Made by a program: the position numbers and the translations under genes | DNA from: an uncultured Candidatus Saccharibacteria bacterium | GTDB lineage: Bacteria > Patescibacteriota > Minisyncoccia > Phycocordibacterales > Zambryskibacteraceae | NCBI GenBank assembly: GCA_964582295.1 | Contig: CAZOQP010000002.1 | Coordinates: 82,268-146,267 of the forward strand | Length of the DNA stretch: 64,000 nucleotides | Direction: 5' to 3' | Shown here: piece by piece, positions 4,975-40,666 of the stretch | Position numbering within the stretch: position 1 is the first letter of the stretch | How the letters are laid out: every line of letters begins with the position of its first letter | The notes under the pieces: model-generated | The model's input: the letters and a program-made list of their open reading frames with translations, nothing else | Databases searched by the model: none | What the model was told of the DNA's origin: nothing

Positions 4975-5494
4975 TGTTTTGTCCTATTTTTACCTTAGCG
5001 GGTCTGATAATTTTCCCCGATAGTATATAACCTTTCTGCACAACTTCAAGAACTTTGTGGTCCTCCTCTTTCTTATTTGTCGGAACTACTCCCACAGCTT
5101 CATGGAACTTGGGATCGAAAACTTCTCCAGCCGGATTCGACTCTTCCAAGCCATTTTGATTCAGAACTTTTATAAATTGATTGCATACAGGTTCAATCCC
5201 TTTCTCTCCGTGCGCGAGGGCGAGATTAAAGCTATCCAAAACCGGTATCAATTCACTTATTAACTTCTCATTTACAAACTTAGTAAACTCAACTTTGGCT
5301 TCCTCATCCCGCTTCCTCATATTCACGAAATCTGCCTGGGCTCTTTGCCAGGAATCTAGATATTCTTTAGCTTTCGCTTCTGCCGCCTTTAATTTTTCTT
5401 TCAGTCGCGCCGTTTGGGAAAGTGTATTCCCTTCCCCATCTTCCGGCACGAACTCCTCCACATCTATTTCTTCTTCTTTATCAGGATCTTTCAT
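4967..5494 (-). CDS. grpE: nucleotide exchange factor GrpE
   Basis: ADFVNMRKR...LDSFNLAL GrpE core, in a grpE-dnaK-dnaJ gene order. Confidence 0.9.
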
Positions 5495-5552
5495 GGCGAT
5501 ATTCTATTCATCTAAATTACATTACACAAGCTATATTTTCATCAGATTTATT

Positions 5553-5627
5553 TAGAGCGAGAAAATCATGCTAAAAGAGACTAAGACTTGGGCAAGTGCC
5601 CCGGAGCGGTCTCTTTTAGTATGATTT
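5553..5627. repeat. conserved 65-nt hairpin element, copy 1 (19-bp stem, conserved 27-nt loop, conserved agagcgag flank)
   Basis: Stem is aaatcatgctaaaagagac / gtctcttttagtatgattt around loop taagacttgggcaagtgccccggagcg. The same architecture with a near-identical loop occurs at 60106..60180. It ends ~10 nt downstream of the rpsI stop. Confidence 0.6.
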
Positions 5628-5637
5628 TTAAGGGACT

Positions 5638-6060
5638 TTATCGTTTACTCCACTGCGGCGCCTTTCTTGCTTTCTTCAAACCGAACTTACGGCGCTCTTT
5701 CATACGAGGATCACGCTTTAAGTGCCCGCCCTTTTTAACATTTTTACGAAGCTCTGAATCGTAAACTACAAGTGCTCGAGCGATACCATGAGAAACAGCA
5801 TCTGCCTGGGAAGAAATACCCCCGCCTTTAGCCATTACCTCAACTGAAAAGGAATTCTCCATCTGCGCTGTTTTGAGAGGAGACAGAACCTTCGCCCTCA
5901 ATTCTGCGACAGGAAAATATTCTGTGAAAGACTTTTTATTTATAAGTATCGAAAACTCCGAAGCTTTTGTCATGCGCACTCGGGCAATGGAGGTCTTTCT
6001 GCGCCCCACCGCTTCAAAATATTCTGCCTTTTTCTCGGTTTTTTCTTTCTTGGTAGCCAT
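5638..6060 (-). CDS. rpsI: 30S ribosomal protein S9
   Basis: GRRKTSIARVRM and C-terminal KARKAPQWSKR are S9 signatures. Confidence 0.95.
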   Translation of the reverse strand: MATKKEKTEKKAEYFEAVGRRKTSIARVRMTKASEFSILINKKSFTEYFPVAELRAKVLSPLKTAQMENSFSVEVMAKGGGISSQADAVSHGIARALVVYDSELRKNVKKGGHLKRDPRMKERRKFGLKKARKAPQWSKR

Positions 6061-14708: not shown

Positions 14709-14742
14709 TCTATTCTAATGTTCTTAAGAACTTGAGAATAGT
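14709..14742. repeat. palindrome family copy 1 (imperfect; core ctattctaatgttCTTAAGaacttgagaatag) between ArsR stop and udg start
   Basis: Shares 30/32 nt with the perfect copies at 15006..15049 and 16806..16845. Centred on an AflII CTTAAG site. Confidence 0.7.
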
Positions 14743-15005: not shown

Positions 15006-15049
15006 TATCTTCTATTCTAATGTTCTTAAGAACATTAGAATAGAAGATA
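15006..15049. repeat. palindrome family copy 2: 44-bp perfect palindrome tatcttctattctaatgttcttaagaacattagaatagaagata, overlapping the -35 region of the ArsR gene
   Basis: Every base is self-complementary about the CTT|AAG centre. Sits immediately upstream of the ArsR TATAAT and start codon. Confidence 0.75.
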
Positions 15050-16609: not shown

Positions 16610-17710
16610 TTATACCCCACTCACAATGGCTCCTCCGAGTATATTCCTGCCACTATAAAAAACTACGGACTGCCCGGCGGCTATTGGTGATGGACTTTTC
16701 ACAGATACATACCATTCTCCTGTCGGCGACTTACCCTTTCGGAAGAGTTTAACTTTCTGTTTTGGCTGGCGATAACGAAACCTTGCCTCGCAACTTATCC
16801 CTTCCTTTCCTATTCTAATGTTCTTAAGAACATTAGAATAGGAAATTGATACGTTTGATAGTTTGAGGGTATATTCGCGGGCCAGGGATTTTTGTGGGCC
16901 TACCACCAGCACGTTCCTTTTAATATCTTTTTTTAAAATATACAACGGCTCATCGTCGGACGTTTCGTGTTCCACTCTAAATCCATGTCTCTCCCCTTCC
17001 GTATAAAACCACACGCCATTATGAGTGCCTATTTTTCTCCCTGCCTCATCAAGAACACTTCCCTTCTTCTCACGAATAGATATTTTCAGATATTCCTTTA
17101 GGTCTAGTGGGCCAAGGAAACAAATTCCCTGACTATCTTTCTTTTCTGCTACTGGAATGCCGGCTTTCTTTGCCAAAGCCCTTACCTCCTTTTTAGTGAG
17201 AGCTTCAAGAGGAAATATGACTTTTTCCAGATCTTCAGGTGGTACTGCCCACAGGAAATACGTCTGATCTTTCTGTGAGTCTTTCGGCTCACTTAAAAAT
17301 GCTTCATCGTTTTTAACCGAGATGCGTGCGTAATGCCCTGTAGCTACGAAATCAGCTCCGAGTTTTTTTGCTATTTCAAACAATGTAGAGAACTTCACGA
17401 ACTTATTACAGAGAATATCAGGATTAGGAGTTCTTCCCGCTTTGTATTCGCGTATCATTTCGTCCGCCACATATTTTTTGTACTGCTTTTTAGCATCTGC
17501 AATATAAAGCGGAACATTCAAATGCGCCGCCACACGCATAGCATCACGTCTCTCTTCTTTTTCGTTGCACGGGAAGCCTTCCGGGTGCCATGTTTCAATA
17601 AATACCCCAGAAACATCAAAACCACGCTCTTTCAGAAGATACGCCGAAACAGAGGAATCCACTCCTCCTGACATCCCTACCACCACTTTGACCCTTTTCA
17701 TCGCGACCAA
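16610..17710 (-). CDS. mnmA: tRNA-specific 2-thiouridylase MnmA, carrying an in-frame palindromic insertion
   Basis: VVGMSGGVDSSVSAYLL PP-loop, and C-terminal CEARFRYRQ plus GQSVVFYSG. Residues ~289-303 (SISYSNVLKNIRIGK) are encoded by the palindrome. Confidence 0.9.
   Translation of the reverse strand: MVAMKRVKVVVGMSGGVDSSVSAYLLKERGFDVSGVFIETWHPEGFPCNEKEERRDAMRVAAHLNVPLYIADAKKQYKKYVADEMIREYKAGRTPNPDILCNKFVKFSTLFEIAKKLGADFVATGHYARISVKNDEAFLSEPKDSQKDQTYFLWAVPPEDLEKVIFPLEALTKKEVRALAKKAGIPVAEKKDSQGICFLGPLDLKEYLKISIREKKGSVLDEAGRKIGTHNGVWFYTEGERHGFRVEHETSDDEPLYILKKDIKRNVLVVGPQKSLAREYTLKLSNVSISYSNVLKNIRIGKEGISCEARFRYRQPKQKVKLFRKGKSPTGEWYVSVKSPSPIAAGQSVVFYSGRNILGGAIVSGV
16806..16845. repeat. palindrome family copy 3: 40-bp perfect palindrome tttcctattctaatgttcttaagaacattagaataggaaa inside the mnmA coding sequence
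   Basis: Perfect inverted symmetry with the same 32-bp core as copies 1-2. The ORF stays open and in frame. Confidence 0.75.
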
Positions 17711-24600: not shown

Positions 24601-25611
24601 TTATATCCTAAACTCAATCACATCCCCATCCTGCACGATATATTCTTTTCCTTCTGTTCTCACCCATCCTTTTTCACGAGCGACAGCATAACTGCCGGCT
24701 TCTAAAAGATTATCGCAAGCCACCACCTCGGCACGGATGAATTTATCTTTGAAATCCGTGTGAATGGCAGTTCCAGCGATGGGAGCCGTTGAGCCGCGTT
24801 CTATAGTCCACGCACGAGTTTCATCTTCGCCTGTAGTAAAAAAAGTAATGAGATCAAGCAGGGCGTAGCTTTCTTTTATTAAACTATCCAAGCCCGTTCC
24901 AAAAACAGGGTCCACTTTCACAAAACGGCCAGGGATACTTGCCGCTATTTCATCCGCCACATTCTCCCCTGCTTCCGATGTATTCAGAATATAAAGAATT
25001 GGCTTCATGGTGAGAAGATGCATTCCTTGGACGATTTTCTTTTCTTCATCTGTTAGCCGCAAAGTATTTGCCATCTCTCCTTTCTTCAAAACCTCCGCCA
25101 CTTTACGAAGTACGGCTTCTTCTGCTATTGCTTCTTTGTTCCCCGCTTTCACATCACGTGCGAGATTACCTAATCGCTTTGTTACGGTTTCATCATCAGC
25201 CAACACCAACTCAAGATTGATAACACCGATATCTGAAAGTGGTTCCACTTTTCCGGCAACATGAATAATGTCGTCATCTTTAAAAGTGCGCACCATTTCA
25301 GCAATAGCATCCACCTCACGAATGTTCTGAAGAAATTTATTTCCGAGCCCCTCCCCTTCCGATGCACCTTTCACAAGTCCTGCGATATCCACGAATTCAA
25401 CGACCGCCGGAATTGTTTTAGGAGATTTGCTTAACTCCGTGAGTTTCCCCAAGCGTTCATCCGGTACCGGCACAATGCCCACAGATGGATCAATAGTACA
25501 AAAAGGATAATTCTCCGCTGGCACGCTCTTTTTCGTAAGTGTATTAAAAAGCGTGGACTTCCCCACATTCGGTAGGCCGACTATTCCGATGCTTAGAGCA
25601 GAATAAGACAT
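24601..25611 (-). CDS. ychF: ribosome-binding ATPase YchF (Obg-like)
   Basis: IGIVGLPNVGKSTLFNTLT P-loop and the C-terminal TGS-like IVQDGDVIEFRI. Confidence 0.9.
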   Translation of the reverse strand: MSYSALSIGIVGLPNVGKSTLFNTLTKKSVPAENYPFCTIDPSVGIVPVPDERLGKLTELSKSPKTIPAVVEFVDIAGLVKGASEGEGLGNKFLQNIREVDAIAEMVRTFKDDDIIHVAGKVEPLSDIGVINLELVLADDETVTKRLGNLARDVKAGNKEAIAEEAVLRKVAEVLKKGEMANTLRLTDEEKKIVQGMHLLTMKPILYILNTSEAGENVADEIAASIPGRFVKVDPVFGTGLDSLIKESYALLDLITFFTTGEDETRAWTIERGSTAPIAGTAIHTDFKDKFIRAEVVACDNLLEAGSYAVAREKGWVRTEGKEYIVQDGDVIEFRI

Positions 25612-27190
25612 TGCCTACGCGACTAACTGGTATGTTTCCATATACTTTTAATTCTTTTTGGTTTCCTACAATTCTATCAATCGTGTTCAATACTATCTCC
25701 CGTTTAAGCCCGAAATTCAAGTCCTTAAACACTTCACTCGCCTCTTTAGTAAATTCTTCGATCTCTGACTTATTAGGAATACCGAGAGAATTACTGTGGT
25801 TTCTCTCCTCTTTAGCTTTAGCCATTTGGGTCTCTACAGCTTCAATTCTCTCTCTTAGAGGGACCGTGTAATCCTTAAGCTGCTCGAGAGTAAACACCCC
25901 AGCACCATAAGCCTTGTTATATCTTTCTTCCTGCTCTTTGAGCTTCCTGACTTCTTTTTCAAGATCCTTAATATCAACCGAGGAACTTTCCGACTTCGAC
26001 TGCTGACCATTAAGCCAACCTTCGGCTTGTTTTAGTAAAAGTTCAGGCGAACTCATCAGCCCAGCTATTTTCTGCCACACGAGTTTGTCAGCTACCTTGG
26101 CACTCAAGCCCCCTTCAACACATTGGGTCGGAAGAGGAAATTGTTTGATCCTGTCATTACATCGGTAGTAAAGATAACGTCCACTTTTAGGACCACATCC
26201 GCATCTCCTAGATCCACAAGTGCACCACATCTTATTAGCCAGAAGAAATTCGTTCTTCCTGTTTCTTTTTGCTAAAGCAAAATTGGCTTCAAGTTGTCTA
26301 CGGGTGCGATCAAATAAATCTTTATCAATGATCGCTGAAATGGGAATGATATACCACTCGGCTTCTGGCCTATCTTTCCTACTAGTCTTTTTCTGCTTTT
26401 TATATTTTTGCTCTTTGTAAGGGTTCTCCGGCACTACAGCATAAGACTTGCCCCAATGTGCTTCTCCTATATATCCCTTGTGGCGAAGCATAGTAGTAAG
26501 AGTGCTTGTTGCCCACACGCCCTTCTTGCTCTTCCTAGGTTTTATTTTCATCTCCATCAACCTTTTCACCACACCCCGCATTGTCATACCTTCATCGGCT
26601 ATCCATTTGAAAATCATTCTGACGACTCTCGCCTCTTCTTCATTGATTTCGTAATAGCCGTGGACCTTCTCGTTCTTGCGAACATAGGTATATCCATACA
26701 AAGCTTCGGTAGTAAGGATATGACCTTCTTTTACTTTTCTTAATTTACCCAGCCTAAAACGCTCAGATATTTTTGCCCTCTCGTATTGAGCGAACAGACC
26801 CTTTACTCCGTGCAAAATCCTATCTTCATCATTTTTTGGAGCAGGAGTGGTTACAAATATCACTTCGATATTTGCTTCTCTGAGTTCATCCATTACCAGC
26901 TCTTGATATGAATACCTACGAGCAAGCCTGTCTGGATCATAGACCAGAACCGCTTCCCACATCTTACTTTTGGCATCTACACGAAGCTGGTCCAAGTCCG
27001 GCCTGGCCAAGCTATCGCCACTCCAACCATCATCTTTATATTCTTTGACTATCGTATAGCCATTCTTTTGAGCAAACTCTTTAACCGCGGCAATCTGAGT
27101 CTGAATAGTCTGATTTTCCTCCTGGTTGGAAGTTGATACTCTGTAATAAGTTGCGATCAGCTTTTTGATTTGTGGAGTGGATGGGTTCAT
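25544..27190 (-). CDS. large serine recombinase (integrase)
   Basis: N-terminal resolvase domain YYRVSTSNQ...LVYDPDRLAR, a recombinase domain, and a C-terminal Cys-rich/coiled-coil region. Confidence 0.85.
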   Translation of the reverse strand: MNPSTPQIKKLIATYYRVSTSNQEENQTIQTQIAAVKEFAQKNGYTIVKEYKDDGWSGDSLARPDLDQLRVDAKSKMWEAVLVYDPDRLARRYSYQELVMDELREANIEVIFVTTPAPKNDEDRILHGVKGLFAQYERAKISERFRLGKLRKVKEGHILTTEALYGYTYVRKNEKVHGYYEINEEEARVVRMIFKWIADEGMTMRGVVKRLMEMKIKPRKSKKGVWATSTLTTMLRHKGYIGEAHWGKSYAVVPENPYKEQKYKKQKKTSRKDRPEAEWYIIPISAIIDKDLFDRTRRQLEANFALAKRNRKNEFLLANKMWCTCGSRRCGCGPKSGRYLYYRCNDRIKQFPLPTQCVEGGLSAKVADKLVWQKIAGLMSSPELLLKQAEGWLNGQQSKSESSSVDIKDLEKEVRKLKEQEERYNKAYGAGVFTLEQLKDYTVPLRERIEAVETQMAKAKEERNHSNSLGIPNKSEIEEFTKEASEVFKDLNFGLKREIVLNTIDRIVGNQKELKVYGNIPVSRVGNVLFCSKHRNSRPTECGEVHAF

Positions 27191-27375
27191 TTTTTATTTC
27201 TATGCTTATCGAGAAATTTTTTGACCTCCTCTTTTGGGATACGCCACATCGCGGTTTTCCCAGTGCCAAGCTTATAACCCTTGAGAATGCCGCGATTAAG
27301 CCAGCGGTCTACTGTTCGAGAATTAACTCTTAGACTTTTTGCCACCTCGTCATTTGTTAAAAATTCCATAATCAT
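27187..27375 (-). CDS. excisionase-family HTH DNA-binding protein
   Basis: LTNDEVAKSLRVNSRTVDRWLNRGILKGYKLG...WRIPKEEVKKFL is an excisionase/MerR-like HTH. Overlaps the recombinase start by 4 nt. Confidence 0.65.
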   Translation of the reverse strand: MIMEFLTNDEVAKSLRVNSRTVDRWLNRGILKGYKLGTGKTAMWRIPKEEVKKFLDKHRNKK

Positions 27376-27555
27376 ATTATATACCTAGTTGTTCAAAGAT
27401 GCCTTAGTGGCTGTTGATAACCTCCTTCGCCTCATTACTTCTTCAAAAAGCACGGCGAATGCTTTATCGAGATTCCGCTCTCCGCCTTCTACTTGAACAT
27501 ATACAATTTCAGGAGTTGGAAGATGCTTATTTTTCTTCGACGGAGTTTTCATAAA

Positions 27556-28734
27556 TTACTCCGTCTCAGGCGTTATTGATAAACCGATGGGTTCAAACTT
27601 TTCAAGAGCTGCACTAACAAAAGAAATACAGTTAGAGTAAGGCAGCCCCTTAGCCAAGAGTGAAGCTGTCTCAATTTTCTTTGTTAAACGCTCCGTGTGA
27701 TCTCCATTCCAACGAGAAGAGATGACGCCCTTCACTTCTTTAGCTCCGTGCTCAATAATGGCAACGGTTAATCCATAGGAGATCAAGCCATTATTCATAC
27801 TATGAGCCCCTCCCTGCTTACCTGCCTCAGAGAGGATATGGAGGAAAAGATTAAGTTTATCGACCGGACCTAGGAGAGCTAACTGATTGGCGGGGCGACT
27901 TACAATGTCCCGCCAGGATTTATTTACGATTTTCTGAAAGAGACTAGGGGTAAATAGATCAGAAAATACAACAAGTTTAGTCCCATCTCGTTCCAACACA
28001 GAATTAAGCTCTCGCTTAACTGTGGCCGTTTTCTTAATCCGATATTCGTATCTGAATATTTCGCTATCTTGAAGACCGTGCCTTTCGACAAAATTTCTTT
28101 CTCGATTGATACGAGCCTTATCTGTGCGCTTATTTTTTGGTCTGGTTGAGTCAGAGATCTTGTCGTAAATTGAACGTTCAATGGTGCCGGAATAGATATT
28201 CAACACCCGCCCTCCTTTCTTAAACCTCGTGTCAGAAATATCTACCACCTTACTTATATCCACCTTAATAAGTTCGTTGAGAATCTCCCTCAACTGCATT
28301 TTCTTAGGCAACAGAACATTTTTGCAGAAATGGGCGGCAGATACAGAAGCCTTGGCGATTACCGAAGTTTCGATGAGTATCCCTGCATCAAGGAGGGCTG
28401 ATCTCAAGCGGTTAAAGACTTTTTCTTTATCGCTTTCCCGGACTTCTTGAATACTATTCCCGTATAGCAGCTTAGGAACAGAGAACTCGATCTTTAGGAT
28501 ATAGCGCATATCCTTTTTGTCCTCGGTTAAAGCCTCAAAGATTTCTATTCGCGGACGATAGCGATCCTGCTTTGGAGGGCGGAAGGTAAACCTCTTGAGA
28601 TATGGACGCAATGACTGACGCTCAGTCGGAGACAAATCCCGATAAGTTCGTGAGATAAGCTCGGGAACATACCAAGATAAATGCTTTATCTTAAATCTGC
28701 CCGGACCGGGGATTGTGAGAATGACAGTATCCAT
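27556..28734 (-). CDS. hypothetical protein (possible replication/initiator protein of the element)
   Basis: Basic 392-aa protein directly downstream of xis-int. No conserved motif confidently recognised. Confidence 0.3.
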   Translation of the reverse strand: MDTVILTIPGPGRFKIKHLSWYVPELISRTYRDLSPTERQSLRPYLKRFTFRPPKQDRYRPRIEIFEALTEDKKDMRYILKIEFSVPKLLYGNSIQEVRESDKEKVFNRLRSALLDAGILIETSVIAKASVSAAHFCKNVLLPKKMQLREILNELIKVDISKVVDISDTRFKKGGRVLNIYSGTIERSIYDKISDSTRPKNKRTDKARINRERNFVERHGLQDSEIFRYEYRIKKTATVKRELNSVLERDGTKLVVFSDLFTPSLFQKIVNKSWRDIVSRPANQLALLGPVDKLNLFLHILSEAGKQGGAHSMNNGLISYGLTVAIIEHGAKEVKGVISSRWNGDHTERLTKKIETASLLAKGLPYSNCISFVSAALEKFEPIGLSITPETE

Positions 28735-28771
28735 AGGAGTTTTGGTTGTTGTCGGTAGATTTCAAGGAATC

Positions 28772-29047
28772 CTATAGATCGGAGTAGAGTCTGTTCTTAA
28801 GAGCTTTCAGGTTGTCGAAATACGAACGCGCCGAAACTTTTAGAGTATCGGCAAGGTAGGCATCTGCTACAGTCTCAATTCTCTTGGTTCTTTTGAAGGT
28901 AAGGCGAGCCTTATTGGGATTAGTCTTATCCAGAAATAAAAGCCTGAACCCAAGACAGACAAGTGCCGCCGAGAGGCCGAGGTCATAGGTGTAATAGATT
29001 TCCGAGTCTCCTGTCGAATAGAAAACTTCTTTTTTCTTCGTGGTCAT
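28772..29047 (-). CDS. small hypothetical protein
   Basis: 91-aa ORF with AT-rich codon usage consistent with the host. Confidence 0.4.
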   Translation of the reverse strand: MTTKKKEVFYSTGDSEIYYTYDLGLSAALVCLGFRLLFLDKTNPNKARLTFKRTKRIETVADAYLADTLKVSARSYFDNLKALKNRLYSDL

Positions 29048-29230
29048 TGTAATTTTGATTAATTAATAAAGACCTGTCGAAGACAATATAAAAAAACCAC
29101 CGCACCCCACGCGAGGAGTGGGAAACGGTGGGACTAGTGGGGCAATAAAAGCTTATAAATTAAGGGTAATCGGACCAATCCACCAAAATTAAAATCGCCC
29201 GTCCCTCCTGTTCACACCAGATTTAGAGAA

Positions 29231-29731
29231 TTAATTAATGACTGACAACCACACTTTCAGTGAGTCAGATTCCAGCTTGAGCTTGGGTATATTTTTCACT
29301 TTCTTCTTATGTGCGCTAATAACACGCTGAACCTCTTTAAATGTCCCTTTGATGGCTGATTCTTTCTCCGATCTCCCCCTATAGGCATCTGCGGAGGTTT
29401 CATCTCTCCCATTCGTATTCATCTGCTCGAAAATAGCATCCATAGTTTTAGCTGTCCCAAATGGAGTGCACAATGCTTCTAGGAGTCTAAACTTGTTGGT
29501 CCTACAACCTCCAACTTGGATTTTCTCTCCTCCCAGGATTAAGTAGCCATTGTCTTTCTCTATCAAAGTATGCGGCTTGTCCTTAGACTGCCCTATAGCT
29601 GGTGAGGAATTTTCAGAAATATCATCAATCTCTTCAAAATGAAATTGAGCCTTATATTCTTCATAAAGCTTTCCAAAGTCCTTTGAGAAATTGATTCTTA
29701 AAATAGTATCCATATCATTCAAATTCGCCAA
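29231..29731 (-). CDS. hypothetical protein
   Basis: 166-aa ORF overlapping the upstream 542-aa ORF by 17 nt, consistent with operon coupling. Confidence 0.4.
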   Translation of the reverse strand: MANLNDMDTILRINFSKDFGKLYEEYKAQFHFEEIDDISENSSPAIGQSKDKPHTLIEKDNGYLILGGEKIQVGGCRTNKFRLLEALCTPFGTAKTMDAIFEQMNTNGRDETSADAYRGRSEKESAIKGTFKEVQRVISAHKKKVKNIPKLKLESDSLKVWLSVIN

Positions 29732-31343
29732 AAAACTCGAAGTTTCTAATCAAACCTTTATCCTGGAAGTGCCTGAGAACACTTTCTAGCTGATGGGCAT
29801 TGAGACTAGCCTCCCTCATCCATCTATTCCAATCGCTTTGAGGTATATCAATTTGACCTTGTTCTAGATCCCATTCCTCCTTTAGATGCTCGAGAATGAG
29901 CAATCTCTTCTTATCAGCATTATTTGGCTCTCTTTTACTATCAGAAGAAGACTGGGGTGAAGATATAACATTATCTGCAAACAAGCAGAGCTCAACAACT
30001 TTCGCTCTATATTCATTGAACTTATCTCTGTTTTTTACGAGAATATTTCTTCCCTCCACAAACTCTCGAGCCGGTTCGCTACTTATGACGGCAAGACTTA
30101 CCTCGCTTTGAAAACCCAGAGCCCCATTATCAAAGGCGCTTCTCATAACATAGTATAAAGTTCTTTTGTTATCCTCAGAAACCTTGTCCGCAATATTGAT
30201 AGCCTTGTTTATTCGACCAATAGGTGGAAGTTCGTCGTATATAAGATCAAGTATATTTTTTACGGCATACCATCTGTCCTTTTCTTTCTTGAGATCATCG
30301 GGGAACTTTAACGAAGAAACCCTGGATTTCTCTTTCTCTATATCCAGAATTTCCTTTGGAGGGTGCTTGCTGGGGTCTGGGAACTCGTCGGTAAGTTTGA
30401 AAACAACCTCCTCTTTTCTGAAATTCTTTATTGCTAGATTCCCAGCTCTAGCCAAGGCGATGATTGTCTCGTAAAAACGAATATGGTTCTTATCTATTTC
30501 CCAACCACCGAGCTTAGCTAACTCGTTAAAAGTCAAAGCAAGATTCCTGTTGTCATACTTTTTAGAAGCAATCAGTATGGAAGCGCATATCTTTTCTCTT
30601 TGTTGCCTATAGCCGTAATACCTAACACCCCTTGGCTGGTCCAGTTCGTTGAGCATAAAGGCGGTAATATATCCATCGAGTTTTTTGAAGAGTTCTACTT
30701 TATTGATCTTCAAGTTAAAGGTCAAAGCTTTCCAAATTTGGTCTATTGCTCCTCGTTCCGCAAAGATTTTTATATCAACAATTGAGAGCTCCTCTCCATT
30801 TTTAACTTTATTGAAAAGTTTCTCCCCCAAGGAACAAAAATTGTCTATTCTATAGCTTTTTGTAACTTTGCCTGTGCTCGGATGATGGGAAAAGGCCATA
30901 CTTCGAGCAATGAGGTTAGCTTTTTCTTTTTGCGCAGCAATCTTGCGCTCCTCACTTTGATAGTAATCCAGATAACCTTTCGGAATACGAATATTAGATA
31001 TTGTTACTGGCTTAGTAAAGTTATCGTGTAGCTCGATCAAAGCCTTTAAAACCTCCTGGGGACGGAAGTAATAATATCGGTTCTCCAGGTTATCGTGCGG
31101 GCCAATGTCAGTTTTCATTAGCCGCTTCTCAATTCGAGCCAAATAGGCTTCTCTTTCTATCAAATCTACTGACCCTTGTGCTTCCTCAGCTATAAGATCA
31201 CGCTGTTCTGATTCCTCAAAGAAAATAAAATCGCTTACTCTATAGTTTCTCCCCTCAAGCTCATCACTGAGCAGAAGTTTCTCCCAAAGATAAACTTTCC
31301 ATTCAGGCAAATAATGGGTAATTTTCATTGTAATTTCCTTCAA
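29715..31343 (-). CDS. hypothetical protein (542 aa)
   Basis: Long ORF with no recognisable motif. Confidence 0.45.
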   Translation of the reverse strand: MKEITMKITHYLPEWKVYLWEKLLLSDELEGRNYRVSDFIFFEESEQRDLIAEEAQGSVDLIEREAYLARIEKRLMKTDIGPHDNLENRYYYFRPQEVLKALIELHDNFTKPVTISNIRIPKGYLDYYQSEERKIAAQKEKANLIARSMAFSHHPSTGKVTKSYRIDNFCSLGEKLFNKVKNGEELSIVDIKIFAERGAIDQIWKALTFNLKINKVELFKKLDGYITAFMLNELDQPRGVRYYGYRQQREKICASILIASKKYDNRNLALTFNELAKLGGWEIDKNHIRFYETIIALARAGNLAIKNFRKEEVVFKLTDEFPDPSKHPPKEILDIEKEKSRVSSLKFPDDLKKEKDRWYAVKNILDLIYDELPPIGRINKAINIADKVSEDNKRTLYYVMRSAFDNGALGFQSEVSLAVISSEPAREFVEGRNILVKNRDKFNEYRAKVVELCLFADNVISSPQSSSDSKREPNNADKKRLLILEHLKEEWDLEQGQIDIPQSDWNRWMREASLNAHQLESVLRHFQDKGLIRNFEFFGEFE

Positions 31344-31526
31344 ATTTACCCCTTATTTGCCTGTTTTACAATAAAAGATCCGAAAGTTTAGCTCACTTAT
31401 TACGTTTATATTGCTATCCACACTAATGCCTTGAATATGGCATTTTAAGGGAAATCGAGCTATACTATAGCTACTCATCTACCACGAGTAGAAGGAGCAT
31501 CCGAAACCGTCCCGCAAGGGGCGGTT

Positions 31527-32033
31527 TCAGCCTTTTATACGGTTCTGTCTATATTCTTCTCTATCTCGTTCGAATGACTTTATGCGGCGAGGATCAGTTA
31601 CTTGGTAAGCACTAAGTAAAACAAAGTATTGGCTTCTTTTTGCTAAGACTACTGCAAATTGGCCTTTCTCATACCAAATAACCCAATTCTTAGAACTACC
31701 TCTTCTGCTCTCCCAATAGGAAATTATTGACTCATTTTCACAGTTCTTGATAATCCAAGACACCCATCCGATCCGCTTGCAACGCTGGAAGTCAGGAGTT
31801 CTATCCTCTTCTTTTTCTCCCTCTGTTATTAAATGCCAGAAAGTAAAATGTTTCCCTTTCTCCTCAGGGAATCGCCTAGGATTGACTGGTAAGCCTTGAA
31901 AGCGCAACTTATCTTCAACAATAGTCTTCTTAAACACCTCAAAGAGACTTTCTTCATAAGCCTTCCATTCTTCTGTCCGACCGGAGAATTCTATTAATTC
32001 AGGTGGAGTTACATCTATTTCTTCGGACGCCAT
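31527..32033 (-). CDS. hypothetical protein
   Basis: 168-aa ORF overlapping the DUF3800 gene by 19 nt. Confidence 0.4.
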   Translation of the reverse strand: MASEEIDVTPPELIEFSGRTEEWKAYEESLFEVFKKTIVEDKLRFQGLPVNPRRFPEEKGKHFTFWHLITEGEKEEDRTPDFQRCKRIGWVSWIIKNCENESIISYWESRRGSSKNWVIWYEKGQFAVVLAKRSQYFVLLSAYQVTDPRRIKSFERDREEYRQNRIKG

Positions 32034-32713
32034 ATCAGGATATTGAATTTAGACTCATCACGAGATGAGGAGGTGAGCATAACCTCTCCTATCTTGCTCT
32101 CGATCTCTTTAATAACTTGGACCTTGCCACTATTTTTATTAAGACCTCTATGCTTATAAGAAAGTGCACCAGCGAAAATATCGACAAGCTGCATAATCTC
32201 CACCTCATTGGACCTAATCTGTTGTGCTCTGGAGATTGCAATATCCTCTACGCTGGCAATATTGAGTATGCGCTTAAGCTCCATAACCTTTAGATTGCTC
32301 CTGGTATCCTTCATATCAAGATAAAGGTTATACTCCGCATCTTCTCTTATAATAAATTTAAGAAGAAGGTAGAACATCTTGTAATACCAGGTATTGTGAT
32401 CTTGAGAGTAGGCAGAATGGTCAAGAACCGTCTTATCCGGCACCACCACTACCCTAAAATGAAGATCGGGATTATCGAAGAAGTATCTAACTAGCTCGCA
32501 ATAGTATTCAGCTTTTGCTTTGGAGATCTTTGTCCACTTTGCTTCAAAGTGGGGTGGAAGATTGTGCTTTTGCTTTATAGCTCGAATCTCCTCGAAGATT
32601 TGTGAGGTCTTCTCTTTCTCTGCCCATATAGCACCTAGCACAAAGGACTTATTTTTGTCGTTCAACAAGTGACAGCTCTCGTCGCAATAGATATTGTAGG
32701 TTGGCTTAGGCAT
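32015..32713 (-). CDS. DUF3800-family protein
   Basis: N-terminus YNIYCDESCHL and C-terminal QLVDIFAGALSY resemble DUF3800 (DESG...ADxxAG). Confidence 0.5.
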   Translation of the reverse strand: MPKPTYNIYCDESCHLLNDKNKSFVLGAIWAEKEKTSQIFEEIRAIKQKHNLPPHFEAKWTKISKAKAEYYCELVRYFFDNPDLHFRVVVVPDKTVLDHSAYSQDHNTWYYKMFYLLLKFIIREDAEYNLYLDMKDTRSNLKVMELKRILNIASVEDIAISRAQQIRSNEVEIMQLVDIFAGALSYKHRGLNKNSGKVQVIKEIESKIGEVMLTSSSRDESKFNILIWRPKK

Positions 32714-32724
32714 ATTGGTTTTGA

Positions 32725-33357
32725 CTACTTTAATCTACTCCTTTTTCTCAATTTTGCCATATCTTTCCGCATCTCCTCTCTAAATTCTCTCTTAGACTTT
32801 TCAGTCATTTTGTCTCGATGACGAATATAAGACTTCCATTCAGGATTGTGGCGTTCAATTAGCCCTGGGTTATCTTTCTTGAGGAAGATATAGTCAAGGA
32901 TCTTGCCTTCCTCATTAGTAATTTCCCTGGCCACCAACTTCCCTTCCCTGATCATCTTTCTGACCGAAACCGTTCTCACTTTAAACATATCAGCTACTTT
33001 CCACATCCTAAAGAAACTATCGCTATGCTTTATTACATAAGCAGGAATAACACCATTCTTGATCGCTCTGTGGCAATTTAGACATCTTTGACCTCCTTTG
33101 TGATACCAGCCAGTCTGCGGATTGATTGAGGTGTAACATACTAAGCAATTATAAGTTCCTTCGACCGGGAAACCATCTGGCTCTGCTTTTAAGCGTTTCT
33201 CATTTTGAACGTGTCTCTTTGCTACTTCCCAAACTATGTCGAGATAACCAGCAAAATTATGGGCGGCCTCTCTCGCCTTTTCGTCAGTTATTTCCTCCCT
33301 GCTATCCTTCTGCATAATCTCCTTTAGCTCTTGGATTCTTTCTTCTGATAGTTCCAT
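32725..33357 (-). CDS. hypothetical zinc-ribbon protein
   Basis: CLVC...CLNCH pair. Highly charged termini. Confidence 0.4.
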   Translation of the reverse strand: MELSEERIQELKEIMQKDSREEITDEKAREAAHNFAGYLDIVWEVAKRHVQNEKRLKAEPDGFPVEGTYNCLVCYTSINPQTGWYHKGGQRCLNCHRAIKNGVIPAYVIKHSDSFFRMWKVADMFKVRTVSVRKMIREGKLVAREITNEEGKILDYIFLKKDNPGLIERHNPEWKSYIRHRDKMTEKSKREFREEMRKDMAKLRKRSRLK

Positions 33358-33474
33358 AGTCTTATACCTAATTAATAAAATCTGGCCCGTATTTTACACT
33401 CGAAGGTAAAAATGGAAACGGCACCCATTTAGGATGCCGTTCACGTCTAGCGATCTCGCTATAAAAAAGGAAAG

Positions 33475-34374
33475 TTAAACAACCCCCTGTCCGTATCGGA
33501 GCACAAGTATTATAAATAGTGCAGATACTGATATAAGTATGCCCCCAGCAAGCCATATACCTTTGTGATGCCTCTTAAACTCAATAAGAGCCCCAATAAG
33601 CATCAGGCTTGCTATCAGGGCGATAAGTAGGCTATAAAGCCCGATTAGGCTTCGCTTTGGGGATGATACTATTTCCTCAATAATAGAGATGTTGTCTGTA
33701 TAAGCTCCCTCGACTCTCTTTTCTATAGCTTCTGGAATTGCTATCGAGGCCGCCTGCGCCGTAGGTGTTGATCTAACCTCTGTTTTGGGAGTAGCCTTGG
33801 CGACTTGAACTTGCTTTTCAGCAGGGGCCCCGAACATTTGCACAACGAAAGTTGTCTCTCTGCCCTGATACATTCCAACAGCCGTAGCCACTCCTATTTC
33901 CTTAAAATCAGAATTTAGGATATTTGCCTTGTGGCCCGGAGAAGACATCCAAGCATCTGTTACGTCCTTAGAGTCGATGAAATCAATTGCTAAATTCTCT
34001 CCTGCGTATTTGTAAACATATCCTGCCTTTTCTATCCAATACCAAGGTTTCTTTCCATCAGGGCTATTGTGAGCAAAATAGCCCTTCTCTGCCATATCGT
34101 TTGCCTTTAGCTGAGCCGCTTGAGTTAGCAGGTCATTCGGCACAAAAGCAGTTTTTCCCACTGCCTGTCTGTCATCGTTCGTATAAGCGACAACCATTCC
34201 TGCATAAACGGCAGCAAATGAGCTTAGTTTGGGAAGATGGACGAGTATTTTGGATGAGACAAAAAATAATCCAACAAGTGCAATCACAGCAACAATTACT
34301 CCCGTAATCCTGAAAAGGTGGGGATGGTAGTTATTACTGTGATGAGGGACTAGATATTTCTTTACTCGTCTCAT
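33475..34374 (-). CDS. CAP/SCP (YkwD-like) domain membrane protein
   Basis: N-terminal TM, CAP core YFAHNSPDGKKPW...GENLA...WMSSPGHKANIL, and a C-terminal TM. Confidence 0.55.
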   Translation of the reverse strand: MRRVKKYLVPHHSNNYHPHLFRITGVIVAVIALVGLFFVSSKILVHLPKLSSFAAVYAGMVVAYTNDDRQAVGKTAFVPNDLLTQAAQLKANDMAEKGYFAHNSPDGKKPWYWIEKAGYVYKYAGENLAIDFIDSKDVTDAWMSSPGHKANILNSDFKEIGVATAVGMYQGRETTFVVQMFGAPAEKQVQVAKATPKTEVRSTPTAQAASIAIPEAIEKRVEGAYTDNISIIEEIVSSPKRSLIGLYSLLIALIASLMLIGALIEFKRHHKGIWLAGGILISVSALFIILVLRYGQGVV

Positions 34375-34441
34375 ATTTTAATTATGACACGTCAAAAATA
34401 CTCAACTCGCTTGCGAATTGGTATTTACTTGTCTGCTCACT

Positions 34442-34996
34442 TTAGCGGCTACCTGATGCTGCTACTGCCGCAAGCTGTGCTTGAAGCAACTGTATCGCCT
34501 GTTGTATCAGTCCCACAACTCGGGTCTTAAGACTTGCAACCTCTGGACTCTCGACGGTAGTAGATACTACGGTGCTGTTAAGCTGGGCTAGAGTCAGATT
34601 ACCCACATAACCAGTAGTAGGTATGTTGTGTGCTGCCTGATAAGCCATTACTGCCGCCTGGGTAATAGTTCCGAAGTATCCGGTCGGTTCAACACCGAAG
34701 AACCCCTCTGCCTTTAACAGCTTCTGAAGTTCGGTTACTTCTTCCCCTCTAGAACCAAGAGTAAGATGAGAGTCAAACCTGAAACCTGCCTCTCCCAAGA
34801 CTGAACCTGTGTTGATTTGAGCCACAGGAGCAGCCACTACTGGAGGTCTGTTAAACTGTCCAGATCTACCACCAGTTCTGATTACTGAAGGAGGGATTAT
34901 ACCTCCTCCACCTCCACCATACTGTGCATAGCTCGGAGTGGGCATTGCTACAGCAATCAAAGCGGTAATAGCTAATGTTCCAATTATTTTTTTCAT
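34442..34996 (-). CDS. secreted protein with peptidoglycan-binding (PG_binding_1-like) domain
   Basis: Signal peptide MKKIIGTLAITALIAVA, a Gly run, and LGSRGEEVTELQKLLKAEGFF...GYFGTITQAAVMAYQ. Confidence 0.55.
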   Translation of the reverse strand: MKKIIGTLAITALIAVAMPTPSYAQYGGGGGGIIPPSVIRTGGRSGQFNRPPVVAAPVAQINTGSVLGEAGFRFDSHLTLGSRGEEVTELQKLLKAEGFFGVEPTGYFGTITQAAVMAYQAAHNIPTTGYVGNLTLAQLNSTVVSTTVESPEVASLKTRVVGLIQQAIQLLQAQLAAVAASGSR

Positions 34997-35057
34997 TTCC
35001 TTGGATGGATTTACTTTTAATCGCCTAGTTTAACGACTTGTGGCAGGTCGTAGAGAG

Positions 35058-36347
35058 TTACCCCCGAGTAACCCAGCGTTTGTCTCTGGCTGTAAACAAG
35101 GCGTATATGTTGAGCCAATAGAGAAATAGCTCGCGGAGAATTGAATAGACAAATAACCTCCACACCTTCTCTTTGCCCTCTAGGTAAACAAAAATATAGT
35201 GGACGAACATAAACAGGAACCAGCTCGGGAGTATAAATATGAGGAAGAATAACGGCTGGGTAAATATGACAAACAAAATCGCAACTCGTAAGCCAAAGGT
35301 AAAGAATAGCAAGGTTAAATCCCATAAGAGCATTTCAAAAAAGAGTTGCTTTCTGCTTCCCCAAGCATAAGTAAGAGCGTAGATTGCCTCACGGATAAAA
35401 CCTCTCTTCCATCGTAACTGCTGCCTCAAGAAGCTCCTGACAGTCGCTGGAGTTTCTGTATAAGCAATAGCCTCTGCCACATAAGCCACCTCATACTTAC
35501 GCTTTAATATGAGATTTGTTAAGTGCCTGTCGTCAGAGGAGTTGCATTGTTCTCCCAAGAACTCTTGATTTAGAAATTCATCAATTATTTCCTTAATTAT
35601 TGAGGCTTTGTATGCTGATAAGCATCCACTACAGCACTCAACCATCCCTACTGAAGATTGGGCTTTCTTATATACATTCAAGCTAATCCAATAATGTATT
35701 TTTATCAGTCTGGTAAGCCAATTCTGGTTTTCATTCAAGAGAAGTATGTAGCCAGTTGATGCTCCTACACGAGGGTCTTTTAGTGGTTCTACTAATCTCA
35801 CTAAAGCATTCTCATCAAGCACGGTATCACTATCAACTGTTATCACAAATTCACTATCCTGAACCATTTTTGATACTGCGTGATGAAGAGCGTGCCTTTT
35901 ACCCTTATTATTTTCAAAGAGGTGAATTTCAATTTGCGAGTATGTCTTTTGGAGATCCCTTACGACTTTTTCTATTCCCTCTCTTATATCCTTTTTTGAG
36001 CCATCATCAACAAGTAGAATTTTCTTATTTCCTTTGGCGGCAATTATAGACTCTAGGGATTTCTTTAAGAGTTCAGGACGTTCGTTATAACAAGGCACTA
36101 CCACTGCAATAGTTTCATTGTCGTAAGAGGGATATTTGGTTTTCCTAATATCACTTAGGAATAGAAGACCGAAAATATACCAAGTGTAAGTTATAGCTAG
36201 AACAAAATAGACACGAGCGTAAATTGTCCAAAGATTATCATTTAAAGTGATGAAAGAATGGAGGAATACAAAAATAGAAATCCCAAGCAGGACGAATAAA
36301 CATAGGTATATAAGCAACATCAACTGACTATGAGTTATTTTCGGCAT
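35058..36347 (-). CDS. family-2 glycosyltransferase, processive type
   Basis: DDGSKKD, VTVDSDT (DxD), and QQLRWKRG (QxxRW), with multiple TM helices. Confidence 0.7.
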   Translation of the reverse strand: MPKITHSQLMLLIYLCLFVLLGISIFVFLHSFITLNDNLWTIYARVYFVLAITYTWYIFGLLFLSDIRKTKYPSYDNETIAVVVPCYNERPELLKKSLESIIAAKGNKKILLVDDGSKKDIREGIEKVVRDLQKTYSQIEIHLFENNKGKRHALHHAVSKMVQDSEFVITVDSDTVLDENALVRLVEPLKDPRVGASTGYILLLNENQNWLTRLIKIHYWISLNVYKKAQSSVGMVECCSGCLSAYKASIIKEIIDEFLNQEFLGEQCNSSDDRHLTNLILKRKYEVAYVAEAIAYTETPATVRSFLRQQLRWKRGFIREAIYALTYAWGSRKQLFFEMLLWDLTLLFFTFGLRVAILFVIFTQPLFFLIFILPSWFLFMFVHYIFVYLEGKEKVWRLFVYSILRELFLYWLNIYALFTARDKRWVTRG

Positions 36348-36679
36348 ATGTCCTTAGAAGAAAACCTCCAAGAGACCATATGTCGTAAATAACGAAAGCA
36401 TCAAGAAGACGATTACCCAGGTTATTTTCTTTTCTGTGCTCACTTGGATGGATTTGATTGTCTTACGCACAAAGCCCGCCGCCAGGAGCTCTAGGCTTTC
36501 GCCCAGAACGTATAGGTTTCCCCATACGACCATCCAAGGAACCCTGACGACGGGTTTTCTGACTTGGATGGTTTTAGAGCCGTGCCTCTTACGAGGGTTA
36601 GGCTAATTTCCCTACACTTTCACTCACAAGTCAAACTATATTATAATACCCCTATATTGTCAAGGAAAATACGTGGATA

Positions 36680-37711
36680 CTAAAACCAGCTAATCCTTTT
36701 CATCAATTTCTGAGTATTCCCGTGTCTCAAAAGACCTAGGTAAGACTGAATTGTTTCTGTCTTCGCCTCTTTTGCTTGGACAGCATTTAGGGCTCTCCTC
36801 TTAGTTGTAGTCCTTACCACCCGGTGATCAGGAAAATTAACCCAGCCGAGGAAGTCCACTCCAGAGGCGACAGTTTTGGTAAAGACTTTATCCGGGTGAA
36901 GTTCTAGTTTCAATTTTTTCCCAAGAAACTGCCGAATAGTAACCAGGACATTATCCAGCTTCTTCTTATCACCGGAAAGGATAACGAAATCGTCAGCGAA
37001 GCGAATATAGCGCTTGATTTTTAATTCTCTTTTAACAAATTGATCGAGCTCGTTCATATAGATATTTACGAGCAGTTGCGAAGTAAGATTACCTAGTGGC
37101 AATCCCATCCCTTCTTTGACTGGCTGGAAACTATCAACAATCTGATCAAGTAGCCAAAGAATATCCTTGTCAGGAATGTAGTGCTTGAGAATATCTTTCA
37201 GGACGGCGTGATCAATCGTAGCGAAGAACTTCTTTATATCGCACTTCAAAATCCAGACGGTTCTCGTGTGGTTCTGACTCTCGATATAAGCGAAATTCCT
37301 AAATTTCTCTATAGCTTTGTGTGTTCCTTTCTCCAAGCGACAGGAGTAAGAGTCGTGTATAAAAGTCCGGTCGAAAAAGGGATAGAGCACTCTATAAATC
37401 GCGTGATGAAGTAGCCTGTCTCTAACGGCTGCTTTGTGTATATTCCTGGGTTTAGGATCGGAGATATTAAAGGCTTGATAAGGCGAGTGTCGGTAGGTTT
37501 TCTCGGCGAGATCTTTATTTAAAGCTATGATATTACTCATCAAGTTTCGCTCAAAGATCTGCACATCCTTCCTTGAACGCTTACCATTTAGAAACTCCTT
37601 CCAGGCTTGGAGAAGATTTTCAAGAGAAATGATATGCTCATATTTATGAACAAGCCGAATACCCATATAGGTGAGTCTACCCCCCCCCCGCACTTTTGCC
37701 AGTAGTAGCAA
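36680..37711 (-). CDS. DGR-type reverse transcriptase
   Basis: RT motifs: ISDPKPRNIHKAAVRDRL, CDIKKFFATIDH, GLPLGNLTSQLLVNIYMNELD ([I/L]GxxxSQ, typical of DGR RTs), and YIRFADDFVIL (YxDD). About 340 aa with no maturase/endonuclease. The true start is probably the internal Met MGIRLV. Confidence 0.85.
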   Translation of the reverse strand: MLLLAKVRGGGRLTYMGIRLVHKYEHIISLENLLQAWKEFLNGKRSRKDVQIFERNLMSNIIALNKDLAEKTYRHSPYQAFNISDPKPRNIHKAAVRDRLLHHAIYRVLYPFFDRTFIHDSYSCRLEKGTHKAIEKFRNFAYIESQNHTRTVWILKCDIKKFFATIDHAVLKDILKHYIPDKDILWLLDQIVDSFQPVKEGMGLPLGNLTSQLLVNIYMNELDQFVKRELKIKRYIRFADDFVILSGDKKKLDNVLVTIRQFLGKKLKLELHPDKVFTKTVASGVDFLGWVNFPDHRVVRTTTKRRALNAVQAKEAKTETIQSYLGLLRHGNTQKLMKRISWF

Positions 37712-38045
37712 AAGTTAAAAATTGTTATTTAACTTGGATTACTTACCAAAACAATCTGCCAAAAGTGCAGAAATATTCTCTCGGTTTAAGAATTGAGAGT
37801 CTGTTCGTGGAAACAATTGAAGCAGCATCTATCGCTTGGTTTCTTCCCCAGCAGGAGAAGCAACCTTATATCCGTTTAGCCATAAGGAAATGGGACACTC
37901 TCAAAGTCTTACTGCTAATTCTCTGGGAGGCAAAAGGTATCGATAATAAAAAATATATTAACTTATCCGTTCCTATGGAAGAAGTAGGAAGGATGCTTGG
38001 AGGATGGAATGGGCAGATCACTGCTAAACAAAACTCCCCTGCAAG

Positions 38046-38181
38046 AGCAGGAGAGAAATGAAAAGACTTTCGGGGCGAGGAACACGAAACCGTTCTCACG
38101 ATTCCACCTGTTGTCGGAGTTGCCGTTGTAGGCGTTGAGCCACCGGCCTTCGTCGTTGCGGTTGAGACCGAGAACGTTCGG
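38046..38181 (-). repeat. DGR template repeat (TR), 136 bp
   Basis: Aligns to 38593..38728 with 19 mismatches, all at TR T on the given strand (A on the coding strand). Its pseudo-ORF is Asn(AAC)-rich: GNPNVLGLNRNDEGRWLNAYNGNSDNRWNRENGFVFLAP. Confidence 0.8.
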
Positions 38182-38469: not shown

Positions 38470-38490
38470 CCGAGCGAAGTGCTCGGGCCG
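38470..38490 (-). other. GC hairpin gcccgag-cgaagtg-ctcgggc ~100 nt downstream of the VR (candidate DGR cruciform/homing element)
   Basis: 7-bp GC stem. Its position downstream of the VR is analogous to the hairpin required for retrohoming in the Bordetella phage DGR. Confidence 0.3.
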
Positions 38491-40663: not shown

Positions 40664-40666
40664 TTT

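Follow-up and report, generated by a model that had tools for sequence, protein, structure and literature searches.

A dispersed hairpin repeat with a conserved folded apex in Patescibacteria, a candidate mobile palindromic element

Rickettsia palindromic elements (RPE) were reportedly described by Ogata and colleagues in 2000. RPE families are defined by conservation of the whole element. In REP sequences it is the stem sequence and a 5' tetranucleotide that are conserved and recognised, and REP/BIME sites bind gyrase and IHF in enterobacteria. What is recognised in the attC sites of integrons is a folded single strand of DNA, conserved in its structure and not in its sequence. We know of few mobile or structured non-coding elements described in Patescibacteria (the candidate phyla radiation). 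Stem-loop units of the TIGR type are frequent in the candidate phyla radiation; their palindromic stems are variable, and one clade of that group has an extra loop hairpin (PMC12045711; bioRxiv 10.64898/2026.09.09.750476). Here we compare with these systems a hairpin repeat that occurs twice in a 64,000-nt stretch of DNA, hereafter the window, from an uncultured Candidatus Saccharibacteria bacterium (GenBank assembly GCA_964582295.1, contig CAZOQP010000002.1, positions 82,268 to 146,267; coordinates below count from the first letter of the window). A first-pass annotation made from the letters of the window had reported two hairpins 54 kb apart with a nearly identical 27-nt loop, and both were located as claimed, on the + strand at 5562-5628 (copy 1) and 60116-60180 (copy 2), with a common 27-nt apex in which 23 positions were the same and 4 of 27 were mismatched.

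The unit measures ~70-100 bp and consists of an apex, a paired helix of free sequence, often a basal internal loop and often a copy-specific outer stem. It is inserted DNA, with sites present or absent between relatives and with in-frame copies in essential genes. We read the repeat as a multi-copy, non-autonomous mobile palindromic element specific to Patescibacteria, a reading to which we assign a probability of about 0.55 and which is favoured by insertion polymorphism, in-frame insertions, within-genome amplification and the lack of a fixed relation to transcription.

Distribution and insertion sites

The first-pass annotation had proposed a genuine element family, and further copies were indeed found outside the window by a core scan and with a covariance model. 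The core scan, which used an exact pattern with the tetraloop positions left free and covered one genome per species (596 Gb), returned 84 stretches with 92 copies from ~40 Patescibacteria assemblies, or 94 copies together with the window pair. The carriers were Paceibacterota/Parcubacteria, Saccharibacteria, Kaiserbacteria, Minisyncoccia and unclassified Patescibacteria. A relaxed core pattern matched at least 120 metagenome contigs, and divergent copies missed by the exact pattern were recovered with the covariance model. Viral contigs gave no match to the core pattern, and a phage origin was rejected on this ground. A hit labelled 'Pseudomonadota' consisted of the core only, without a stem, and corresponds to the ~1 match that 20 fixed bases would give by chance in 596 Gb. 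Archaeal bins contributed a single copy, at 1836-1881 of L063 (JWKQ01000003.1, 'archaeon GW2011_AR5'). Next to it lie a gene resembling sortase genes and a protein whose sorting signal is of the LPNTG type, both bacterial in appearance, and because the flanking genes are of the sortase/LPXTG type the archaeal assignment of this bin is doubtful; a binning error or a cross-domain transfer is possible.

Copy number ranged from 1 to ~20 among related small genomes, with ~20 copies in Chersky_89 (a genome of ~0.7-0.9 Mb) and ~18 in I-1_bin-176, and the copies were spaced at about one per 30-50 kb. They can be far more crowded locally: one I-1_bin-176 contig (L001) held three copies within 1.3 kb (1067-1114, - strand; 1576-1622, + strand; 2274-2320, + strand), a trio that includes a divergent apex variant. 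Rfam 15 at the gathering threshold matched only tRNA and LOOT RNA in the whole window, both of them elsewhere, and a permissive search of 5480-5660 returned only microRNA-precursor-like hairpins of 13-17 bits (E > 1). Compared with Rfam, REP families and terminator classes, the repeat matched none. No description of it was found in the searchable literature, the literal sequence included, where coverage was incomplete and an earlier description is possible; the family is apparently undescribed.

ORFs (open reading frames) ran in frame through at least seven copies, and every copy inside an ORF was in frame. These copies were found in the genes for isoleucyl-tRNA synthetase (IleRS, encoded by ileS; loci L003, L032, L035 and L085), UvrB (L039/L097 and L169), MurB (L030), YchF (L047), TsaE (L071) and a class-V aminotransferase (L002). 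TsaE has 35 residues where the solved structure of a Thermotoga homologue has 3, and the Pfam matches of TsaE and the aminotransferase were each split in two. The linker of Saccharibacteria IleRS from VKFKL to YLLAWTTTPWTLP measured 6-8 residues in five relatives and ~34 in L003. The apex is translated as ERSGALAQVL in the IleRS of L003 and as KTRASAPER in that of L085, where it stands in the opposite orientation between unrelated arms, and DRSGALAQVLVS and KTWASAPER are candidate element-encoded peptides within IleRS, UvrB or TsaE. The same spot of IleRS holds variant-apex or different palindromes in other genomes, and the ileS site is a presence/absence polymorphism with independent hits. 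In ileS and tsaE alike, the added sequence comprises the palindrome in full. The insertion in uvrB is common to two divergent genomes, in which the arms differ at many positions and are still paired. Many IleRS proteins in databases end or shift frame at the ileS site, and gene calls and assemblies thus seem to be disrupted by the hairpins. Differing palindromic inserts at one IleRS surface-loop site were also seen in L086 (880-1043), in L087 (780-900) and in the proteins P0121, P0124, P0137 and P0142.

Genomic context was tallied for 145 distinct copies. Between co-directional genes, 49 copies stood antisense and 23 sense, a further 16 lay between divergent and 15 between convergent genes, and the remainder were inside ORFs or at contig ends. 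Both orientations relative to the flanking genes thus occur; among copies with the basal motif, 14 were antisense versus 4 sense. Runs of four T within 10 nt after the hairpin were present at 15 of 143 copies (10%) on the element strand and at 4 of 143 (3%) on the other, with a background of 6%. No target-site duplication was found, the longest direct repeats in the flanks being distributed as in shuffled pairings, and no conserved promoter or flank was detected alongside the copies. At ten intergenic copies with tight flanks, the neighbours on the two sides are different genes, each of them complete (for example tpiA and pgk, rpoC and dnaG, and rpe and tkt), and therefore the element does not split genes; a split-gene or intron-like role was rejected on the basis of these ten copies and of the ORF copies, all in frame. 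One arm at L023 holds the last eight codons and the stop of a HIT-family gene. Gene junctions that follow rplI, rpmA, rpe and pgk hold copies in several genomes, and the orientation of these copies differs. In five Saccharibacteria loci (L034, L060, L062, L079 and L082) a copy lies ~40-60 nt upstream of a prepilin-type (type IV pilin) gene, with the first stem pairs (CAAAAC/GTTTTG) conserved and the mid-stem completely different; these copies are candidates for long retention at one locus.

Within single genomes the copies differed in how much of the arm they had in common. Those of Chersky_89 had in common a 21-bp stem, a bulged C and the basal loop and differed outside that region, and the shared arms point to a recent amplification within this genome in which both arms were copied intact. 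The sequence just outside was unique to each copy, yet complementary over 7-13 bp; this outer complementarity would stem from the insertion process or from the choice of target, not from slow compensatory drift. The arms in I-1_bin-176 were 28-44 bp long, perfect and different in each copy, with a loose family resemblance. All perfect palindromes of that genome with arms of at least 28 bp carried the core, and its core-less hairpins had arms of 12-22 bp.

Several ways of generating such copies were considered and set aside. A small insert at the tip of a pre-existing terminator stem is not required, given the arm lengths in I-1_bin-176 and the wholly extra sequence at the ileS and tsaE sites, and a pre-existing stem is a possible origin for the copy-specific outer stems. 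Fold-back copying of one arm at each transposition is disfavoured by the Chersky_89 copies, which keep the bulged C and the asymmetric basal loop. Flipping of the loop by recombination between the arms was not seen within a genome, arm asymmetries being tied to the orientation of the loop; inversion of the whole unit is possible.

Anatomy of the unit and of the window copies

The apex has the 27-nt consensus UAAGAC-UU-GGGC-AARY-GCCC-CGGAG-YG and is 93% identical between copies, the three commonest 27-mers accounting for 55, 31 and 13 of 145 copies and lying 1-3 positions apart. Its hairpin, P2 (GGGC/GCCC), was fixed by the design of the search, so that variants could enter only via the model or the relaxed pattern; those recovered were compensatory, with GGCC/GGCC in 5 copies and GGCU/GGCC in 1 copy. 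The third base of the tetraloop and the base after GGAG were G-C in 93, A-T in 46, G/T in 3 and A/C in 3 of the 145 copies (30, 26, 1 and 2, respectively, in alignment A2). The fourth base of the tetraloop and the G before that tertiary-pair base were C-G in 142 copies and U-G in 2. From these sequence patterns we infer that the apex may fold as a 4-bp hairpin with a 2-bp mini H-type pseudoknot from the tetraloop to the 3' tail, an arrangement that is stereochemically plausible.

The stem below the apex measured 19-45 bp, with modes of arm length at 21-22, 31-32 and 40-44 bp. Selection on structure, which the first-pass annotation had proposed from two copies, was borne out in the family: 9 of 10 inner-stem pairs covary, 96.8% of cells are paired and none of 500 shuffles scored as high. 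Stem positions 6-20 were only 36% identical between copies, yet non-Watson-Crick combinations made up only 1.8% of aligned pairs, and structure rather than sequence is conserved in the stem. A wobble confined to a plus-strand transcript had been guessed from a single G-T pair, and the first 15 pairs of the family agreed with this guess (52 G.T versus 14 A.C on the + strand). A basal purine-rich motif was present on both sides of the stem in ~40 of 91 copies (Saccharibacteria, Paceibacterota and the window). Its left half (GCGAA, GCGGA or AGCGA) starts 27-32 nt before the core, and its right half (CGAGC, TGAGC or CGGAG) starts 20-25 nt after it. In the complete unit, as folded for L010, GCG-AA-G lies opposite C-GAG-CGC, which gives a 2x3 purine loop bounded by G-C pairs, and beyond it comes an outer stem unique to each copy. 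The spacing from apex to basal loop is fixed at 19-23 bp, or about two helical turns.

Both window copies are preceded by the purine-rich octamer AGAGCGAG (5554-5561 and 60107-60114, + strand), which occurs 6 times in the window versus 2.2 expected. The first-pass annotation had listed it as a sequence in front of the element; it is present as described but is the left half of the element's basal loop, so the element is larger than had been stated. The right half is absent in copy 1, and in copy 2 it is cCGAGCGt at 60181-60188 (CGAGCG at 60182-60187), opposite AGAGCGAG. Copy 1 continues on the + strand with the 5' arm of its stem P1 (5562-5581, 20 nt) and the 27-nt apex TAAGACTTGGGCAAGTGCCCCGGAGCG (5582-5608; 70.7 bits with the covariance model). 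Within the apex, P2 is formed by 5590-5593 with 5598-5601 around the tetraloop 5594-5597, and the proposed 2-bp pseudoknot would join 5596 with 5607 and 5597 with 5606; the 3' arm follows at 5609-5628. Copy 2, on the same strand, has its P1 5' arm at 60116-60134 (19 nt), the 27-nt apex TAGGACTTGGGCAAACGCCCCGGAGTG at 60135-60161 (69.5 bits), P2 at 60143-60146 with 60151-60154, a proposed pseudoknot of 60149 with 60160 (A-T, where copy 1 has G-C) and of 60150 with 60159, and its 3' arm at 60162-60180.

The two hairpins lie, as had been noted, just past minus-strand stop codons, with measured distances of 9 nt from the rpsI stop (5638-5640) and 11 nt from the stop of the FKBP gene (60192-60194); Pfam confirmed the identities of rpsI and the FKBP-type isomerase gene. 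The arms were 95% complementary in copy 1, with one G.T, and 100% complementary in copy 2. They had been called completely different yet complementary, which applies to the outer 10-11 bp; the inner 9 bp (AAAAGAGAC/GTCTCTTTT) are identical. The statement that neither copy has a U-tract is strictly correct for copy 2, whereas in copy 1 the stem foot carries runs of T on both strands (GATTTTT on +, GATTTTC on -). The 22-nt core, GACTTGGGCAA followed by GT or AC and then GCCCCGGAG, matched the window twice versus 0.00 expected, and AGAGAC-N20-40-GTCTCT matched twice versus 0.07 expected. Fold z-scores against shuffles were -6.4 to -7.0 for RNA and -5.8 to -6.7 for DNA, and the + strand gave the more stable fold at both sites. 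No third copy was found in the window by the covariance model, the next best score being 14.7 bits.

A core-less perfect hairpin, AAAGCGGCGAGACAC-GAT-GTGTCTCGCCGCTTT, lies at 60031-60063, ~50 nt upstream of copy 2 and 4 nt past a + strand ORF (59835-60026). Its stem has GCGAG and GACAC/GTGTC, reminiscent of the basal motif and inner stem of the repeat, and it represents a relic lacking the apex or an ordinary terminator. A spacer-less palindrome, TTCTATTCTAATGTTCTT directly followed by AAGAACATTAGAATAGAA, has three copies near gene boundaries (14710-14741, 15006-15049 and 16806-16845), two with perfect arms of up to 22 nt and one 90% complementary; it has no relation to the hairpin repeat and represents a second family, of repeats or of operator-like sites. 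Other window genes include dnaK, grpE, rplM, rplQ, rpoA and rpsD. Identity of the GrpE protein to other proteins does not exceed 74%, the nearest named ones being from Patescibacteria, Parcubacteria and Zambryskibacteria. A CIRCE/HrcA operator upstream of grpE was considered for the repeat and rejected, the sequence being a misfit to the consensus and the family occurring at unrelated genes.

A probable integrated mobile island occupies ~25500-42000. It carries two large serine recombinase genes (25544-27190, - strand; 40667-42007, + strand), a ParB-like gene (39704-40663, + strand) and a candidate defence pair, PDC-M04 A/B (a DUF3800 gene at 32015-32713 and its partner at 31527-32033, both - strand). 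Island ORFs that had no Pfam, PDB or PADLOC match include 27556-28734, 29715-31343 and 38588-39313. A reverse-transcriptase gene (36680-37711, - strand; RVT_1, E 1e-23) diverges from a bAvd-like gene (37696-38061, + strand), and ~75 nt downstream of the reverse-transcriptase gene lies the LOOT RNA (Rfam RF03000, 71.5 bits; 36491-36604, - strand). This layout is similar to that of a diversity-generating retroelement, and LOOT may be the non-coding RNA of the reverse-transcriptase system.

Mobility and its alternatives

Conservation is confined, on one strand, to the folded apex and to a basal loop set at a constant distance from it, the helix between them being free, and this argues for a protein that reads the folded strand and the length of the helix. 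The unit would move or be processed as a folded single strand, and a trans-acting enzyme would read the apex and the basal loop and measure the helix between. In outline such an enzyme may be like the hairpin-reading HUH/Y1 transposases (IS200/IS605 TnpA, RAYT) or the integron integrases. A conserved folded centre with free paired arms is the inverse of ordinary transposon ends, and likewise of REP sequences, attC sites and the ends of miniature inverted-repeat elements. The window elements are probably passengers tolerated just after the stops of rpsI and the FKBP gene, where, as a side effect, the 3' untranslated RNA would gain a long hairpin that is nearly perfect. We advance only tentatively the broader proposal that the apex and the basal G.A loop on a helix of free sequence are the recognition module of an undescribed pan-Patescibacteria mobility or processing system, which might work by a new kind of hairpin (single-strand) transposition that reads the centre of the palindrome and not its ends, or as a new class of structured RNA or DNA that is itself catalytic or recruits proteins. 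In either form its insertion would be seamless enough for it to last within essential genes of the smallest bacterial genomes known.

Several observations weigh against mobility. No mobilising gene was found and no protein family recurs beside the copies, apart from the housekeeping and type IV pilus genes that were the only recurring ones when ~1,000 ORFs within 2.5 kb of ~200 copies were clustered. A query with one IS608 TnpA sequence gave no match among 8,646 open frames, taken from the window and from loci totalling 1.46 Mb that cover a small part of each genome, and neither a RAYT nor a TnpA gene was found there; no Tas-like or HUH gene was recognisable among the mobile-island and unknown proteins of the window in Pfam, PDB and PADLOC scans. 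The 27-nt apex is near-invariant across phylum-level lineages, which is unusual for selfish DNA and fits a host function. Several divergent genomes are occupied after rplI, rpmA, rpe and pgk and inside uvrB, and such multiply occupied sites could be old ones kept by selection, without repeated insertion. Of the 72 copies between co-directional genes, 49 have their folded strand antisense to the flanking genes, opposite to the bias expected for IS200/IS605. Excision products, transposition intermediates and intergenic sites that are empty were not seen. Mobility and host function are not mutually exclusive, REP elements being an analogous case that combines both.

The main rival is a host function of the module, as RNA or as DNA. 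A host function at the RNA level would make the apex pseudoknot and the basal G.A loop a platform for a conserved Patescibacteria protein, acting in cis to mark mRNA processing, 3'-end protection or factor-dependent termination, or in trans as a family of small antisense RNAs, with copies spreading because the module is useful. The extreme conservation of the apex across phyla would suit such a platform, as would the covariation in the tertiary pair and in P2, the one-strand excess of G.T over A.C, the same gene junctions occupied in several genomes, the position of copies 9-11 nt past stop codons and the copy upstream of pilin genes in several Saccharibacteria. However, copies take either orientation to their flanking genes, with the non-transcribed strand usually the folded one, and neither a promoter nor a flank is conserved alongside them. 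In addition, the hairpins have no U-tract, the stems are nearly perfect (1.8% non-Watson-Crick), unlike typical selected RNA helices, and in-frame insertions into essential genes that are empty in relatives are unexpected for a regulatory RNA. We therefore regard a host RNA as unlikely. The first-pass annotation had suggested a structured RNA transcribed antisense to the flanking genes or a DNA-level site; the antisense RNA gained no support, with no evidence of a discrete RNA gene, no conserved upstream sequence or promoter and copies in all four gene configurations, and the DNA-level site is nearer to the evidence. A mobile DNA-level element is preferred on these grounds, together with the in-frame insertions whose sites are empty in relatives. 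The site could instead serve a host machine, as a cruciform or hairpin for a topoisomerase, nucleoid protein, primase or recombinase in the manner of REP/BIME. Long, nearly perfect palindromes would be able to extrude as cruciforms, and they are dispersed at about one copy per 30-50 kb, carry modules at a fixed spacing of two helical turns and are independent of the direction of transcription. This role is nevertheless improbable: the wobble strand asymmetry, the asymmetric basal loop and the pseudoknot covariation indicate one folded strand and not duplex recognition, copy number varies from 1 to ~20 among related small genomes, and insertions inside genes are hard to square with chromosome organisation.

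Two further explanations fare worse. Orphan guide-RNA units akin to TIGR-Tas stem-loop arrays or IS110 bridge RNAs would have a variable palindromic stem around box C/D-like motifs and two short guides flanking an inner hairpin. The TIGR units indeed share variable palindromic stems and prevalence in the candidate phyla radiation (PMC12045711; bioRxiv 10.64898/2026.09.09.750476), and the apex has single-stranded segments on both sides of its hairpin, beginning UG and ending CC. The would-be guides, however, are only 6-8 nt long and invariant in ~145 copies, the copies are dispersed singletons and not arrays, some lie inside coding genes, and no Nop-domain or Tas gene was recognisable in the window or recurrent near copies; the invariant loop largely refutes this explanation, which we consider very improbable. 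The idea that the window hairpins serve rpsI and the FKBP gene as ordinary intrinsic terminators, and are alike by chance or through local duplication, has hardly any credibility left. They do lie directly past stop codons, the stem foot of copy 1 contains T runs, and the ordinary terminators of the window are likewise perfect palindromes, but the chance expectation of the core pattern in the window is zero, hundreds of copies elsewhere have the same 27-nt apex, U-tracts are not enriched, and copies are also seen within genes and between divergent ones. In the same genomes, the arms of ordinary terminators measure 12-22 bp and their loops 0-8 nt, compared to 19-45 bp and 27 nt in the repeat.

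The streamlined genomes of Patescibacteria are among the smallest in bacteria, and the repeat reaches ~20 copies per megabase. It is common to lineages as distant as Saccharibacteria and Paceibacterota and adds ~30 residues to essential enzymes. Genome annotation is affected because genes are split or mis-called at the hairpins, and metagenome assembly is affected too, with possible contig breaks. If the repeat is mobile, an enzyme that recognises a hairpin tip and measures two helical turns awaits discovery, and if it is a host RNA module, it would be among the most widespread structured motifs specific to Patescibacteria. In either case the covariance model is a direct handle for a census of the repeat.

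Comparison with known systems

TIGR-Tas systems resemble the repeat in their enrichment in the candidate phyla radiation and in having a variable palindromic stem with a loop able to hold an inner hairpin. TIGR units, however, form tandem arrays beside a tas gene and have two variable spacers of 8-12 nt in the loop, whereas the repeat is dispersed, its loop is essentially invariant and no tas gene was seen. Membership was rejected, there being no tandem arrays, no adjoining Nop-domain tas gene and no variable spacers. The repeat is also unlike DDE-derived miniature inverted-repeat transposable elements, as target-site duplications were lacking and terminal inverted repeats were not conserved (36% identity at stem positions 6-20 compared to 93% in the centre). 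It resembles integron attC sites in keeping structure and not sequence, in its position directly after the stop of the preceding gene and in its variable length, but the attC boxes are at the base around a variable centre, and here the centre is conserved and the base variable. No R/L boxes, cassette arrays or intI context were present, and the flanking genes are core housekeeping genes.

The likeness to REP/REPIN sequences (mobilised by RAYT) and to palindromes derived from IS200/IS605 is broader. Both are hairpin-forming, multi-copy and mostly extragenic near gene ends, leave no target-site duplication, apparently have one active strand and occur as genome-specific variants. In the repeat, however, the stem is variable and the loop invariant, copies also occur inside genes, and the antisense bias is opposite to that expected for lagging-strand-template insertion. 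A conserved stem with a 5' tetranucleotide was not found, and the conserved flank (GCGAA/GAGC) is present in only ~40% of copies.

The behaviour of RPE comes closest. Like the repeat, RPE are palindromic repeats of ~100 bp with many copies per genome in the small genomes of host-dependent bacteria; they have intergenic copies and in-frame insertions in housekeeping genes that stay open and gain ~30 residues, and they have no known transposase. In-frame insertion that leaves the gene open was found here in ileS, uvrB, murB, ychF, tsaE and the aminotransferase gene. The repeat belongs to another bacterial group, its carriers all being Patescibacteria, and the likeness is one of behaviour. It also differs in that only the apex and the basal loop are conserved, with free arms and an apex whose tertiary structure is supported by covariation. 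Among the systems compared, the repeat behaves most like RPE, and it differs from all of them in which part is conserved.

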